From Oscillospiraceae bacterium (lineage in GTDB: Bacteria > Bacillota > Clostridia > Oscillospirales > CAG-272): DNA of 64,000 nt. The notes under the pieces were generated by a model. The model saw only the letters and a program-made list of their open reading frames with translations, had not been told where the DNA came from and did no database searches. Position numbers and translations under genes: made by a program. The stretch covers positions 35,303 through 99,302 of the forward strand of contig SVQZ01000003.1 of NCBI GenBank assembly GCA_015065105.1, given 5' to 3'. This document shows positions 12,941 to 18,807 of the stretch, piece by piece (position 1 is the first letter of the stretch; each line of letters opens with the position of its first letter).

Positions 12941-14257
12941 ATGAAAAAATATATTGCATTAATTTCTATATTTTTTGTTTTAAGCACTTTTCTTACCTCA
13001 TGTAAAATTGAAGACAAGCCTGCGGTTAATTCTCTTGATTCTGCGGTGTTAGATAACGAAACTGATGAAGCAAATAAGATCGAGGATCTTATGTTTGATG
13101 ATGTTTCTGTTGAATTTCAAAATAATAATGATTATCTGCCCTTTGGAATAAATGATGAGATGAACGAGCTGATCAAAAATTATTTTGTAAGTTATTATAA
13201 ATCGCTCGGATCGCTTGAGGATCATGATATGTCCGATTATTTTACAAAGGACAGCGATTACCAAGCTTGTATTGTAAATGAAATGATTTCTTATCAGAAT
13301 GGAATCAGAAAAAACTTTACATATGATATGCAGTATAAAAAAGCGAGTGTCGGTGTTACTTACAGATCTCTTATTGAACTCGAAGACGGTTATAAGATAT
13401 ATCTTTGTGAAAATAATGCAATGAGCTTCAACTACATACAGAATATTACTTCGTATACCAGCGATGTTGAGCATTATTTTACACTTATAGAGGAAGACGG
13501 AAAATATCTTTTAACCGAGCATTCTGAAATAAGCGGAGTTTATGAGCTTATAAAGAGTAGCTTTGATAAATATACAAGTGATCTTTACGATTATAATACC
13601 GAAGAGATATTCGGTATAGTAAAGGACTATTTTGTTTCAGTAACAACAAAAGAACTAGATGCAGTAAATAAACAAAGGGAAGAGTATAACAGCTCTCCCG
13701 AGAATTATCAGACCGAGCTTTACGCTGATAATGAATATGATGTTGATGCTGCACTTGAATATTCATATGAATGGGCAGGGAAGACTGAAGCGAAAAGAAA
13801 TCCTAATTTCGGTGTTTATGACATCTACGGCGGTAACTGCAACAATTTCACGTCCCAATGTCTTTTTGCAGGCGGAATACCAATGGACCTTCAAGGGGTT
13901 CAATGGAAATGGTACGGAGAAAGCGTTAATTCTAACGGAGGAGCTTACGGAAGAAGTCCCAGCTGGGCGGAATGTGATTATTTCTATGCTTACTGTACAG
14001 AAAACGAAGGCTACGGTCTTGTTTGTGACTATTCCTCAAATATTTACAGCGGACGCCCCGGGGATCTTATTCAGTATATAGTTGACGAGACCGATGCTGT
14101 ACACACGGTTATCATTACAAAGGTAATATATGATTCGGATGGTAATGTTGTTGATTATCTTATAAATTCAAATACAACTGATAAGGTTGACAGTCCTATG
14201 AGTGCGTATGGATATACTAATTTCAGATTAATTAAAATAATTGGATGGAATAATTAA
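12941..14257 (+). CDS. Lipoprotein with C-terminal putative amidase (Amidase_6-like) domain
   Basis: AAGGAGG RBS. Signal peptide with lipobox LTSC. The C-terminal GGNCNNFTSQCLFAGGIPMD and GDLIQY...HTVIITKV motifs are typical of the putative-amidase domain, from memory. Confidence 0.75.
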   Translation: MKKYIALISIFFVLSTFLTSCKIEDKPAVNSLDSAVLDNETDEANKIEDLMFDDVSVEFQNNNDYLPFGINDEMNELIKNYFVSYYKSLGSLEDHDMSDYFTKDSDYQACIVNEMISYQNGIRKNFTYDMQYKKASVGVTYRSLIELEDGYKIYLCENNAMSFNYIQNITSYTSDVEHYFTLIEEDGKYLLTEHSEISGVYELIKSSFDKYTSDLYDYNTEEIFGIVKDYFVSVTTKELDAVNKQREEYNSSPENYQTELYADNEYDVDAALEYSYEWAGKTEAKRNPNFGVYDIYGGNCNNFTSQCLFAGGIPMDLQGVQWKWYGESVNSNGGAYGRSPSWAECDYFYAYCTENEGYGLVCDYSSNIYSGRPGDLIQYIVDETDAVHTVIITKVIYDSDGNVVDYLINSNTTDKVDSPMSAYGYTNFRLIKIIGWNN

Positions 14258-14278
14258 GGAGTTAAAAATTCACTCCTT

Positions 14279-14800
14279 TCAGACTGTCGAAAAAGTCGGT
14301 CGGACGTGTGAAACTAAAATATTAAGAAGTTAAACACTCCTACCAACAAACACCTGAGAAATAATTTATAAATCTCCCAATATAATTGAATAAGCATTCA
14401 AAAGTGGCATAAACGTCGAGTTTATGCCACTTTTTCACACTTTTCAGTGAAAAGGAGCTCTACCTTACTTAGTAAGCCTACGTCCCCTTTTCACGAAAAC
14501 CTACGCTTCCTTTTTCGAAGCCTGACAGACTGTCGAAAAAGTCGGTCGGACGTGTGAAACTAAAATATTAAGAAGTTAAACACTCCTACCAACAAACACC
14601 TGAGAAATAATTTATAAATCTCCCAATATAATTGAATAAGCATTCAAAAGTGGCATAAACGTCGAGTTTATGCCACTTTTTCACACTTTTCCGTGAAAAG
14701 GAGCTCTACCTTACTTGGTAAGCCTATGTCCCCTTTTCACGAAAACCTACGCTTCCTTTTTCGAAGCCTGACAGCGTGTCGATACTTTATCGACACGATC
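14279..14800 (+). mobile_element. Structured non-coding repeat element (MITE-like): one 3'-truncated copy (246 bp) plus one full copy (~275 bp) head-to-tail, flanked by a duplicated terminator hairpin
   Basis: 246-bp period (AGACTGTCGA at 14281 and 14527; GTGGCATAAAC at 14404 and 14650). Flanks TAAGGAGT(T/G)AAAAATTCACTCCTT at 14255-14278 and 14801-14824. An inverted homolog lies at 55081-55354. There is no ORF. Confidence 0.65.
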
Positions 14801-14827
14801 TAAGGAGTGAAAAATTCACTCCTTTTC

Positions 14828-15352
14828 TTATATAAAATCTTTTTTAATATGATCAATTGCACCCTTTTCAAGTCTTGAAACTTGGGCTTGAGAAATGCCA
14901 ATCTCTTCTGCGATCTCCATTTGGGTTTTGCCTTGGTAAAAACGCATTGCTATAATAGATTTTTCTCTTTCGTTCAATTTCTTTATCGCCTCGTTTAACG
15001 CAATACCCTCAAGCCAGCTTTCGTCGTTTGAACTGTTATCGCTGATTTGATCCATAACGTATAATGAGTCACCTGCAGATCCGTCATTGTATACCGGTTC
15101 GAATAATGATACCGGATCAACTATTGCCTCAAGCGCGTTTGTGACGCGTTCCTTTGTAGCATCTATTTCGTTATCTTTCAAATATTTCACAATATCGTCT
15201 ATATTAGGTTCTTTATCCATTCTTTTTGATAACTCGTCCTTTGCCCAAAGGGCATGATAAGCAAGATCCCGGATACTTCTGCTGACTCTGATCATGTTAT
15301 TGTCTCTCAAATATCTTCTGACCTCGCCTATTATCATTGGAACGATATGAGA
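14828..15352 (-). pseudogene. sigG: 5'-truncated SigG/SigF-clade sporulation sigma factor gene (regions 2.4-4 only)
   Basis: VPMIIGEVRRYLRDNNMIRVSRSIRD, DPVSLFEPVYNDG..LYVMDQISD and FYQGKTQMEIAEEIGISQAQVSRLEK closely match B. subtilis SigG from memory. About 70 N-terminal residues (regions 1.2-2.3) are missing. Similarity ends near 15345-15365, where an AT-rich insert begins. Confidence 0.7.
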
Positions 15353-15382
15353 AAGTAGAAATTCTAAAAAGGAGTTTCTACA

Positions 15383-15934
15383 ATGACCAGAAAACAAGCA
15401 TTACAGAGCGTTATTTCTGCAGTATCAAACAATCCTAAATATGCTGAAGAAATTCGTATTCTACAGGAAATCAGTGATGAGCTACCTCTTATCCATTGGT
15501 CTGATAGCTCAATTAGAGACACGGTTGAACAGTTTATTGTTGATAATGGTAGAGTACCAACTACATCTGATTTCAAGAAAAAAGGAATGCCACCGCATCC
15601 GGTTATCAAGCAGAAATACAAGATCACATTAGGTGAATGGTTGGAGAAATACTATCCTGTTCGAAAACCTACATATGAAGAATTAAAAGAGAAATATACA
15701 AACCTATTTGTTGAGGATTATAAGAGAATTAAACCAAAAAGTCAATATGAATTTAATAAGTTTAAAAGTCGTGGAACTAAAGGATGGCAAACTGTTGCAA
15801 AATATTATGAAGTAAAGTCATGGAGAAATTTAATAAAGAAATTGGATTTACCATTATATTTTGATATGGCTCGAGATCATAAACCAGTACAATTGAAAGT
15901 TAATTTCCATTTAGATTATGATTTTCATGATTAA
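15383..15934 (+). CDS. Hypothetical protein with two repeats resembling homing-endonuclease-associated (HNH_repeat-type) helical modules; probably from a mobile element
   Basis: AAAGGAG RBS. The repeats are IRDTVEQFIVDNGRVPTTSDFKKKGMPPHPVIKQKYKITLGEWLEKYY and a second around KSRGTKGWQTVAKYYEVKSWRNLIKKLDL. The region is visibly more AT-rich than its flanks. Confidence 0.55.
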   Translation: MTRKQALQSVISAVSNNPKYAEEIRILQEISDELPLIHWSDSSIRDTVEQFIVDNGRVPTTSDFKKKGMPPHPVIKQKYKITLGEWLEKYYPVRKPTYEELKEKYTNLFVEDYKRIKPKSQYEFNKFKSRGTKGWQTVAKYYEVKSWRNLIKKLDLPLYFDMARDHKPVQLKVNFHLDYDFHD

Positions 15935-17511: not shown

Positions 17512-18807
17512 ATGTCATTGGCATACGGAATTATAGCACTTATATCCCTATGTATGGTTGGAGCTTGTGTTATAGCCGACAAAAAGCGTGACGTATGGTT
17601 GATACTTGTTTTTGTTTCGGTGTCGGTATGTAATCTCGGGTATTTTATGTTGTCGATTTCTCAGGATCTCGGTTCAGCTCTCAATTCCAACAGGCTGGCA
17701 TACCTGGGAAGTGTATTTCTGCCCTTTTTTATGCTGATGATGGTTCTGCGCTTCTGCAATATAAGACGGAGAAAAGCACTGACGGTATCCCTTGTGGTAT
17801 TAGGGATCCTTATGCTGGGTATTACTACCACTCCGGGTATACTGCCTATATATTACAGCACGGTTGATATCGAATTCGTTAATGGTACCACAAAGCTGGT
17901 CCGTGAATACGGACCTCTGCATCTGTTGTATTACGTATATCTGTTCGGATATATGATCTCAATGGTTTTGGTGACCTTTTATGCCATCATAAAGAAAAAG
18001 ATCGGATCACGTATACATACCGCTTTGCTTCTGTGTACGGTTTTCTGTAATATTTTCATCTGGCTCATAGAGCAGTTTTTGCCCAGAGGCTTTGAATGGC
18101 TTTCGGTGTCCTATATATTGACCGAGTGCCTGATACTGGCAATTTATCGTTCTATGCAACGTCAGGGTCTTATGACAAGCGATGTCAGAGCACGATCATA
18201 TCAGATCAATATATTGCTGGCTGTTTTTTTGCTTTTATTTGCGAACTTTGTTCGTGTGATCACTATGAATACCTCTGCCATAATGTATGTGGTATCTCAC
18301 ATGGTTATCATAACGATATATCTTGGAATTCTTGTGTTCTGGGGTATATCCGTATATGATCGTATAATAAGCAAATCTTTACGGCGTTATCTTGTGACTC
18401 TCGTTGGGTTGATGATGCTGTGGATGCTTATGAGAACACTCAGACATACCGTATTTCATTATGTATTTCCCGTTGGACAGTGGTGTTGGTATGCTTTCTA
18501 TATTTCTATGATACTGATACCTCAGCTCTGTTTGTTTGCTGCAATGCATATAGGAAAGCCAGAGGGGTACAGACTGTCGAAAAAATGGTATTTAATGTAT
18601 ATTCCCTCAGCTTTGCTGATAGTTGGTATTTTAACAAATGACCTTCACCAGTGGGCGTTCTGTTTCCACGAGGGCTATGAAGCGGGGTGGGACACGTATC
18701 AAAGAAGATTTTTGTACTATGCCGCAGTGGTGTGGATATTCTTCTGCATAGTTATGATGATAGTGCAGATATTAAAGCGTTGCCGTATCCCAGAACGCAT
18801 AAAGTAA
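17512..18807 (+). CDS. Polytopic membrane protein (~12 TM), N-terminal part resembling the 7TM sensor module of histidine kinases
   Basis: AAGGAGG RBS. The 431-aa product is almost entirely hydrophobic helices. The stop at 18805-18807 lies 5 nt before the next in-cluster ORF, which is in another frame. Confidence 0.75.
   Translation: MSLAYGIIALISLCMVGACVIADKKRDVWLILVFVSVSVCNLGYFMLSISQDLGSALNSNRLAYLGSVFLPFFMLMMVLRFCNIRRRKALTVSLVVLGILMLGITTTPGILPIYYSTVDIEFVNGTTKLVREYGPLHLLYYVYLFGYMISMVLVTFYAIIKKKIGSRIHTALLLCTVFCNIFIWLIEQFLPRGFEWLSVSYILTECLILAIYRSMQRQGLMTSDVRARSYQINILLAVFLLLFANFVRVITMNTSAIMYVVSHMVIITIYLGILVFWGISVYDRIISKSLRRYLVTLVGLMMLWMLMRTLRHTVFHYVFPVGQWCWYAFYISMILIPQLCLFAAMHIGKPEGYRLSKKWYLMYIPSALLIVGILTNDLHQWAFCFHEGYEAGWDTYQRRFLYYAAVVWIFFCIVMMIVQILKRCRIPERIK

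Follow-up and report, generated by a model that had tools for sequence, protein, structure and literature searches.

In the 64,000-nucleotide stretch of DNA analysed here (the window), an Amidase_6 gene (12941-14257, identified with Pfam) and a convergent sigma-70-like gene, with its stop at 14828, are separated by a 570-bp intergenic stretch in which the longest open frame is 55 codons. This stretch harbors a 521-bp insert (14280-14800) composed of two complete 245-bp units, a single A after each, and a 29-nt terminal palindrome. The insert lies between two copies of a 25-nt hairpin, TAAGGAGT[T/G]AAAAATTCACTCCTTT, which was absent from the rest of the window (chance expectation, 0 matches). 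The first hairpin overlaps the TAA stop codon of the Amidase_6 gene upstream, and the second faces the sigma-70-like gene. The features are listed below; the units are assigned to the strand that corresponds to the coding strand of the parent insertion sequence (IS).

14255-14279, + strand: first copy of the target-site duplication, a 25-nt terminator-like hairpin, TAAGGAGTTAAAAATTCACTCCTTT
14280-14524, - strand: unit 1, element core of 245 bp, CAGACTGTCGA...GAAGCCTG, with its own terminal inverted repeats
14400-14434, strand not assigned: central hairpin of unit 1, with its counterpart in unit 2 at 14646-14680
14525 and 14771: single A spacers
14526-14770, - strand: unit 2, element core, with three substitutions relative to unit 1
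14772-14800, - strand: terminal palindrome, CAGCGTGTCGATACTTTATCGACACGATC, in which the terminal repeat occurs twice, the copies facing each other
14801-14825, + strand: second copy of the target-site duplication, a terminator-like hairpin, TAAGGAGTGAAAAATTCACTCCTTT

Tandem Repeats Finder reported one array at 14280-14782 (period 246, 2.0 copies, 98% matches, no indels). Comparison of 14280-14525 with 14526-14771 revealed exactly three substitutions (14446 A/C, 14471 A/G and 14481 C/T), the units being 98.8% identical. The 246-bp period, the three substitutions and the anchor positions given in an initial annotation of this DNA were thus reproduced by the repeat search, the unit comparison and the coordinates. 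Its description of 1.9 copies of an element of about 275 bp, however, has to be replaced by the two complete 245-bp units, each with its A, plus the palindrome at 14772-14800. The annotation was right that the insert lacks an ORF and is flanked by a hairpin on each side, but the length of 522 bp is corrected to 521 bp, the hairpins occupy 14255-14279 and 14801-14825, and the first of them includes the upstream stop codon.

A second copy of the element, also noticed in the initial annotation and confirmed here, is located at 55 kb. It is a single unit (55081-55353) in reverse orientation relative to the 14-kb copy, shows 77% identity to the 14-kb units and is bracketed by two identical 35-nt hairpins, whose sequence is unlike that of the 14-kb hairpin.

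55046-55080, + strand: first copy of the target-site duplication, a 35-nt hairpin, AGCAAAATAAGAGGCAGAATGCCTCTTATTTTGCT, overlapping the end of the gene at 52665-55055
55081-55110, + strand: terminal palindrome, CAGCTTGTCGATAAACTTATCGACAAGCTG
55111-55353, + strand: single core unit, ending ...CGACAGTCTG at 55353
55354-55388, + strand: second copy of the target-site duplication, a 35-nt hairpin facing the convergent gene at 55379-57967

The window contains a further tandem array with a repeated terminator at 61167-61613.

An exact match to a 21-mer of the element end located the element at 77 loci in nine metagenome-assembled genomes (MAGs) of animal-gut Clostridia, and the contigs of several metagenomes end inside it. 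Standard copies are 272-276 bp long, with variants up to 436 bp. In fecal_MAG_474, five or six copies do not differ in their first 85 nt. Each standard copy (about 275 bp) comprises a 30-bp terminal palindrome, a non-coding body of about 245 bp, which is structured and has its own terminal inverted repeats, and a 34-nt right end, CAGACTGTCGAAAAAGTCGGTCGGACGTGTGAAA. The terminal inverted repeats match at 15 of 16 positions (CAGACTGTCGAAAAAG versus CAGACT-TCGAAAAAG), and the outermost 11-13 nt of the element recur inside the terminal palindrome. At gathering thresholds, Rfam models detected only a tmRNA and two tRNAs in the whole window. A blastn search of plasmid and phage collections with the element yielded only chance matches, and exact-pattern scans of viral contigs detected neither the end 21-mer nor the terminal palindrome. 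The sole match in a scan of metagenome contigs was a chance one inside a gene, the collection evidently not including these samples. The element end sequence found no match in the literature.

This distribution bears on the possibility that the tandem block arose by local duplication, through replication slippage or unequal crossing-over between pre-existing hairpins, rather than by insertion of a mobile element. In its favor, the two units lie next to each other and share 98.8% identity, slippage-type tandem duplications are common, and the array at 61167-61613 likewise carries a repeated terminator. However, the element is also present as a single unit in the 55-kb copy and, across nine genomes, at dozens of unrelated loci, bracketed each time by copies of a different hairpin. 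Slippage may account for the second unit, but not for the element or for the bracketing hairpins, and we regard a purely local origin as extremely unlikely.

The association with hairpins was found throughout the family. In 75 of the 77 distinct flanks, compared with 3.6% of random positions, the element is separated by 0-3 nt from the end of a stem of at least 7 bp; in 53 of them the distance is 0 nt. Among 26 complete copies, 18 show a direct duplication of an entire hairpin of 20-35 bp, which differs from locus to locus. The lengths observed (20, 23, 24, 25, 26, 27, 28, 29, 30, 32 and 35 bp) track the length of the hairpin. Two further complete copies have the same hairpin on both sides with the loop flipped. 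The remaining six have unrelated hairpins on the two sides; copies lacking duplicated flanks, which the initial annotation had named as evidence against insertion into a hairpin, do therefore occur, and for at least one of them (L037/L079) the mismatch is explained by recombination between copies or by chimeric assembly. Only one hairpin is present at element-free orthologous sites of other species (L074, L048, L009 and L088). Such empty sites were found across species only; within the same species, all contigs with identical flanking proteins carry the element or break in it. The 18 loci with different whole-hairpin duplications, the 75 hairpin-adjacent flanks and the single hairpins at element-free sites support the initial proposal that the bracketing hairpins are a target-site duplication spanning exactly one hairpin. 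Since the length of the duplication follows that of the hairpin, the simplest interpretation is that the target is attacked at the base of a hairpin or cruciform that has been extruded.

The initial annotation knew of no described family with this signature. The ends of the element, however, match those of the IS1182 family. Anchored at the terminus, they show 14/20 identity to an Anoxybacillus element and 13/20 to ISBce1 (14 of 20,000 shuffles were as good, p about 7e-4). The first 11 nt are identical to those of a Paenibacillus larvae element of 1554 bp, which ends CAGACTGTCGACAAAGTCC...CAATCTG and whose transposase scores 471 bits on NCBIfam NF033551 (cut-off 270) and also matches DUF772, DDE_Tnp_1 and DDE_Tnp_1_6. 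In Bacillus licheniformis, the left end of the related element (CAGCTTGTCGAC...GATCGACAAGCT) and the palindrome at 55081-55110 have identical arms, and the right end of the B. licheniformis element matches that of the gut element at 19 of 25 positions. The terminal palindrome is thus the counterpart of the left-end palindrome in the autonomous IS1182-family relatives. Whole-hairpin duplications of 23-27 bp flank all four autonomous copies examined: two of P. larvae (L149 and L150; 24 and 23 bp), one of Caloramator sp. E03 (L151; 24 bp) and one of B. licheniformis (L152; 27 bp). ISfinder lists duplications of 0-60 bp for the IS1182 family, whose preference for palindromic or stem-loop targets and variable duplication length the gut element shares.

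[quoted passage not shown] The element is short and non-coding, has terminal inverted repeats, is dispersed in multiple copies with target-site duplications and has ends in common with autonomous IS. As a family of MITEs it is new, but it belongs to a known kind of element. Membership of a larger annotated IS, which the initial annotation had counted as a contrary outcome, thus holds in part, the element being a derivative of that family. The transposase by which the IS1182 family is defined (NF033551; DUF772 with DDE_Tnp_1 and DDE_Tnp_1_6) is present in the relatives L149-L152 but not in the element. With two IS1182 transposases as queries, tblastn gave no match in the window, nor in the MAG loci (about 620 kb). 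Because of this result and the lack of an ORF, we consider the element only a non-autonomous derivative and not an IS. The search for a trans-acting transposase or recombinase proposed in the initial annotation did not reveal a partner with identical ends: the window and the MAG loci had none, and genome, metagenome and viral scans returned MITE copies or nothing. Close-homologue searches with ISClbu1 and with the P. larvae transposase did not reach the gut lineage, pRE25 carries no IS1182 copy, and the multi-copy proteins near element copies were only orthologues and one IS3 element. The nearest autonomous relatives belong to Bacillales and Caloramator rather than Oscillospiraceae and have only the terminal 20-45 nt in common with the MITE.

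IS110/IS1111 elements and integrons use palindromic sites, and in the gut family a 75-nt segment, flanked on both sides by conserved structured parts, varies strongly from copy to copy. On these grounds, the enzyme could be envisaged as a recombinase that is RNA-guided or site-specific, like those of IS110 (bridge RNA) or integrons (attC), with the element being guided to its target hairpin by the variable region. The longest word common to the variable region and its own target, however, averaged 6.04, compared with 5.80 for the targets of other copies, indicating no excess, and the variable region was not complementary to the target. Target duplications of 20-35 bp are not a feature of such systems, and the ends of the element match a DDE transposon family instead. 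Therefore, a recombinase of this type appears highly improbable.

The autonomous subgroup (L149-L152) shares with the MITE the termini CAG(A/C)(C/T)TGTCGA...CTG, a terminal palindrome formed by the repeat and an inward inverted copy, and insertion at terminator-like hairpins beside gene ends with duplication of the whole hairpin. Its members, 1.5 kb in length, code for a transposase of about 490 aa, whereas the MITE has no ORF, a structured body of 245 bp and an extra internal inverted repeat. They also belong to a different order, the MITE being found in Oscillospirales-type gut MAGs, and the similarity is limited to the ends.

Targets chosen by structure have been described for IS1272 and TnSha1 of staphylococci, which are members of the IS1182 family; these targets are stem-loops of 21-38 bp with stems of 7-13 bp, often confirmed terminators, without sequence consensus (PMC5678879, PMC4923244). 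Like the gut element, these IS can carry extra tandem copies of the terminal repeat (IS1272L, and three repeats in TnSha1). In contrast to the MITE, which duplicates the stem-loop intact, they delete or replace it and leave no duplication (PMC5678879, PMC4923244). The outcome seen in the MITE corresponds to pathway b of the model of PMC5678879, where whole-stem-loop duplication was offered only as a possible outcome. ISClbu1, an IS1182-family element of Clostridium butyricum, has terminal palindromes at both ends and palindromic targets, with several copies between convergent genes, as does the gut element; one of its copies is inserted at an internal hairpin of another (L098). Its flanks, however, are inverted repeats of each other, so that the palindrome is split by the IS rather than duplicated. 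The IS1182 family therefore has no uniform outcome: in another subgroup, that of ISClbu1, the palindromic target is split, and IS1272 removes it.

Unusually long duplications also occur in the IS1202 family, in which the length is fixed by subgroup at 5-6, 15-17 or 27-28 bp, and the text of the preprint says nothing of palindromes or hairpins as targets (bioRxiv 10.1101/2022.12.17.520857). The 27-28 bp subgroup resembles the MITE in this respect, but we rejected this family, as the length of the MITE duplications (20-35 bp) depends on the hairpin and the transposase family differs. Palindrome-associated elements derived from IS200/IS605, which insert 3' of a conserved tetra- or pentanucleotide without target-site duplication, are ruled out by the long duplications and by the bases abutting the element ends, which vary among copies. 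Classical bacterial MITEs (Correia, RUP, Nezha and Chunjie) are, like the present element, small, non-coding, multi-copy and intergenic, with terminal inverted repeats, strongly folding transcripts and an origin from IS ends. Chunjie, however, has a short fixed duplication of 9 bp, and no whole-hairpin duplications are found among the MITEs reviewed in PMC10969869.

For the MITE, we propose that an IS1182-type DDE transposase supplied in trans would mobilise the element. This enzyme may select its target by shape and not by sequence, the target being a palindrome of 20-35 bp and usually a bidirectional terminator between two genes. The two target positions would come close only with the palindrome extruded as a hairpin or cruciform, and the exact phosphates attacked would presumably lie at its base. 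Repair of the two single-stranded gaps would then copy the whole hairpin and leave the element between two complete terminators. As each neighbouring gene retains a terminator, the insertion is probably nearly harmless. The extra unit of the 14-kb copy may represent a secondary event. A core unit could have inserted, via its internal repeat, at the palindromic junction beside the terminal palindrome; the second unit has an A on either side. Alternatively, slippage or unequal exchange between the three similar repeat termini may have produced it.

The structure of the body raises a different possibility, namely that the element is primarily a folded single strand of nucleic acid, whether an RNA gene or an ssDNA transposition intermediate. 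The enzyme would recognise its fold rather than duplex terminal repeats, and the hairpin target would likewise be single-stranded, for example at a replication fork. On the strand equivalent to the IS coding strand, the consensus fold has -97.8 kcal/mol and 72 pairs, 19 of them with compensatory changes, whereas the opposite strand folds more weakly (-53.1 kcal/mol, 53 pairs). Covariation within the family is strongest in the stem of the central hairpin (14400-14434 in unit 1). G.U-type pairs strongly favor the IS-coding-equivalent strand (155 cells versus 9 on the predicted structure of that strand), but the predicted structure of each strand is biased to its own G.U pairs. Single copies of the element fold with z = -9.1; palindromic DNA, however, folds well both ways, and the opposite strand gave z = -9.05. 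Optional internal modules occupy fixed positions in the element and resemble the expansion domains of structured RNAs, but no promoter-like site lies within the element and no Rfam family matched it even at permissive E-values (best score 20.8 bits against a threshold of 115). Single-strand insertion alone leaves the target duplication unexplained, and part of the fold may be a remnant 5' leader of a lost transposase gene. Considering both sides, we judge this possibility quite unlikely.

The strand-asymmetric, covariation-supported structure of the body nevertheless counts against the MITE explanation in one respect, as simple binding of a transposase to duplex ends does not explain it. The IS1182 subgroup and its MITEs might work via structured single strands at both donor and target, with the conserved, strand-asymmetric fold that pairs the two element ends serving as a transposition substrate or cis-acting RNA, and with the transposase acting as a junction- or hairpin-specific nuclease-ligase instead of a classical duplex-binding DDE enzyme. 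We consider this unlikely. If it were true, duplication, splitting or deletion of the stem-loop would reflect which hairpin foot is attacked.

Published evidence that IS1182-family elements recognise the shape of DNA over its sequence concerns IS1272, which destroys its target hairpin. The MITE family and its autonomous relatives add dozens of natural insertions that have duplicated an entire hairpin. The duplication length, tracking that of the stem-loop, amounts to a natural experiment that argues for two strand transfers at the base of an extruded structure. These insertions also illustrate a safe-harbour strategy, in which a bidirectional terminator is entered and regenerated on both sides and both neighbouring genes are still terminated. 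Short-read assemblies of gut Clostridia break at these elements, and standard MITE and IS finders, which expect duplications of 2-14 bp, would miss them. A search of the 620 kb of loci for other elements that duplicate hairpins picked up only the window's tRNA array and, at one locus (L017), a dispersed palindrome.

The intergenic stretch between the Amidase_6 and sigma-70-like genes contains one tandem array only, with a period of 246, 2.0 copies, 98% matches and zero indels, and no open frame longer than 55 codons was found there. Three positions differ between the two units. The hairpin TAAGGAGT[T/G]AAAAATTCACTCCTTT is located on both sides of the array (14255-14279 and 14801-14825) and is absent elsewhere in the window, the chance expectation being none. 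A second copy of the element is bracketed by two identical copies of a 35-nt hairpin, different from the one at 14 kb. The initial annotation had described a tandem repeat between duplicated hairpins at 14 kb and a similar copy at 55 kb; the array, the hairpin coordinates and the 55-kb flanks confirmed this description. Both insertions are located between convergent genes, each of which keeps a terminator-like hairpin.

12941-14257, + strand: Amidase_6 gene, left neighbour of the 14-kb array
14828-15397, - strand: sigma-70-like gene, convergent neighbour on the other side of the 14-kb array
55081-55353, inverted: second element copy, single unit, 77% identical to the 14-kb copy

Comparison of element copies revealed a core of 245 bp with its own terminal inverted repeats (CAGACTGTCGAAAAAG vs the reverse complement of CTTTTTCGA-AGTCTG, 15/16). 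Separated from the core by 0-3 nt is a terminal palindrome of 29-30 nt (consensus CAGCGTGTCGATAGGTTTATCGACACGCTG), which consists of the outermost 13 nt of the repeat in two copies face to face. The order is core-A-core-A-palindrome at 14 kb and palindrome-core at 55 kb. At the non-palindrome end, 34 nt are identical between both window copies. Behind this conserved end lies a highly variable stretch of ~75 nt; the rest of the element is conserved and includes several covarying stems. Longer variants of 321-436 bp (loci L006, L030, L058, L064, L020, L024, L054, L027, L068 and L073) carry optional structured modules of ~112, 47 and 70 nt at fixed body positions, each module being present in several genomes. 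The element end also has an exact 15-mer match (CAGACTGTCGAAAAA) at 18570-18584, within ORF 17512-18807. The rest of the element is absent there; therefore, this match is probably a chance occurrence.

When species-representative genomes were scanned once with a 21-mer of the conserved end, 77 loci emerged in 9 MAGs. These MAGs originate from the guts of goat, buffalo and other animals, and their labels are Clostridia, Eubacteriales, Oscillospiraceae or Acutalibacteraceae. Many of the loci are found at the ends of contigs, and metagenome contigs that cover the window's own locus stop within the element, as is expected of a multi-copy repeat. In another species, an amidase orthologue with 79% protein identity is followed by its own different hairpin and then by the element with a one-base end variant. 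Therefore, the family is wider than the exact 21-mer pattern.

Of 77 distinct flanks, 75 had a hairpin (stem of at least 7 bp) that ended at a distance of 0-3 nt from the element; the distance was 0 nt in 53 of these. The rate of hairpin adjacency was 3.6% at random positions of the same loci. One of the two remaining flanks is the internal unit of the window tandem. Both flanks were available for 26 complete copies. In 18 of these, a direct duplication of 20-35 bp, distinct at each locus, comprised the entire hairpin. Its length follows that of the palindrome and is not a constant number; some duplications (L016 and L047) extend one unpaired base beyond the stem on either side. Two further copies (L006 and L040) had the same hairpin with the loop inverted. 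In these two, the stems are identical and the loops are reverse-complemented (e.g. TGTGAA vs TTCACA), by either post-insertion inversion or duplication templated from the other strand. In the other 6 of the 26, the hairpin on one side was unrelated to that on the other. For at least one of them, exchange between copies or a chimeric assembly is the explanation, since L037 has on its right the flank that L079 has on its left. Locus L082, which represents the 55046-55388 copy in a variant strain, is bordered by the 35-nt hairpin on one side only; on the other side it has a different hairpin and, after it, a TrmO gene, which points to rearrangement between two copies. Single hairpins without the element were found at orthologous positions in other species (L074 vs L029, L048 vs L045, L009 vs L022), and an amidase orthologue with 66% identity has a single terminator and lacks the element. 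All empty sites recovered were from other species, none from the same species.

The element showed no match to an Rfam family and no similarity in plasmid, phage and viral-contig collections. As a test for a relationship, we read the ends of annotated IS1182-family elements, fetched via a conserved C-terminal motif. They share the terminus (G/C)AG-N-CTG-N-C...AAAAG, and the firmicute members have a terminal palindrome made of the repeat and an inward inverted copy. Anchored at the terminus, the MITE end was identical at 14/20 positions to an Anoxybacillus element and at 13/20 to ISBce1; 14 of 20,000 shuffles reached 14. A profile of five transposases uncovered 45 family members in viral contigs. 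One of them, L149, is a 1554-bp element assigned to Paenibacillus larvae by an identical protein, with the ends CAGACTGTCGACAAAGTCC[TGTCGACAGTCT]...GGGACTTTGTCTTCAATCTG. Its transposase scored 471 bits on NF033551 "IS1182 family transposase" (cut-off 270) and matched the domains DUF772, DDE_Tnp_1 and DDE_Tnp_1_6. L149 is flanked by a direct duplication of a whole 24-bp hairpin, GAGCCATGCCTTTTGGCATAGCTC. The hairpin duplications are 23 bp at a second P. larvae copy, 24 bp in a Caloramator element and 27 bp in a Bacillus licheniformis element, so that all four autonomous copies examined duplicate the whole hairpin. The arms of the palindrome at 55081-55110 recur in the left end of the B. licheniformis element (CAGCTTGTCGAC...GATCGACAAGCT), and the right end of this element is identical to the conserved MITE end at 19/25 positions. 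On these matches, the MITE retains two parts of such an IS, the palindrome of the left end and the right end. Its palindrome-to-conserved-end strand is the equivalent of the transposase-coding strand, and the conserved GGAG of the variable region may be a remnant of a ribosome-binding site. Neither the window nor ~620 kb of MAG loci contained an IS1182 transposase, and no autonomous element with ends identical to those of the MITE was found. The earlier claim that no described family has this signature was wrong, as the ends and whole-hairpin duplications match IS1182-family elements; the element is a MITE family not described before, but of a known kind, derived from the IS1182 family. In the P. 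larvae elements (L149 1420-2901 and L150), the transposase frame crosses the right terminal repeat into the duplicated hairpin, and the protein C-terminus therefore varies with the insertion site.

IS1272 and TnSha1, IS1182-family elements of staphylococci, use 21-38-bp stem-loops as insertion sites, many of them confirmed terminators, and delete the target stem-loop (PMC5678879, PMC4923244). In one pathway of the IS1272 authors' model, the 5' feet of the stems are attacked, and the complete stem-loop would be duplicated as a result (PMC5678879, PMC4923244). At the MITE targets, the two attacked positions would be 20-35 bp apart in B-form DNA but would meet where an extruded cruciform or hairpin has its base, and gap repair would then regenerate the hairpin on both sides of the element. 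We infer this kind of attack for the MITE; the initial annotation proposed it, and it is also pathway b of the IS1272 model. The part of that proposal concerning target duplication spanning a structure is borne out by the flanks. The outcome at the target hairpin is not uniform within the family: IS1272 removes the stem-loop, and at ISClbu1 copies the palindrome is split and its two arms flank the element, whereas the MITE duplicates the hairpin. The MITE family offers a large natural data set on shape-directed target choice, which is little understood.

The MITE body is more than a spacer. The consensus fold of the coding-equivalent strand has 72 pairs, 19 compensatory changes and an energy of -97.8 kcal/mol, compared with -53.1 kcal/mol for the opposite strand, and one-sided changes tend to preserve G.U pairs on the former. 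For a single copy, both strands folded far better than shuffles (z ~ -9). This predicted fold could be a transposase-leader relic, could act in cis as RNA or could indicate a single-stranded intermediate. No guide-like match of the variable region to the target was found.

The second 14-kb unit has a single A on each side, and the terminal palindrome comes after it, not before. This fits insertion of a core, with the internal inverted repeat as its end, at the palindromic junction beside the terminal palindrome. It also fits slippage or unequal exchange among the three similar repeat termini. The former has parallels in the extra end repeats reported for IS1272L and in an ISClbu1 copy (L098) inserted at the foot of another copy's internal 5'-leader hairpin, which generated a head-to-tail pair. 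The units diverge by 1.2%; therefore, the event was not very recent, or the donor was another copy.

Other repeats adjoin hairpins or MITE copies. At 61167-61613, immediately past the second tRNA gene of the window, a 196-bp tandem array contains three copies of a 55-nt block, made up of the final 18 nt of the tRNA and a long terminator hairpin, and, between them, two copies of a 141-nt insert with a complement of the tRNA T-arm (GGGGGAATCGAACCC). Here too a terminator is repeated, as at the MITE sites, but the ends are different, without CAG...CTG. Just past its final terminator (61614-61681) lies TAGGAAATTGCTCTGTTTCGTGTGAGTTGTT.... Sequence related to it is found after the central hairpin in three truncated MITE copies of MAG SIG691 (L013, L026 and L034), with tandem repetition in L013; this may be a second repeat family located after hairpins. 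Three diverged MITE copies of the same MAG (L021, L061 and L067) share an identical sequence (CGTATAATATAGTCAGTAG...) that breaks them all at one internal position, and their contigs stop ~90 nt further along. This suggests a recently active second element targeting the MITE. In L017 (236-569), the palindrome ATAGTGGTATTTTACCACTAT occurs four times beside a MITE copy at irregular spacing (86-115 bp) and looks like a REP-type dispersed palindrome, not a CRISPR array.
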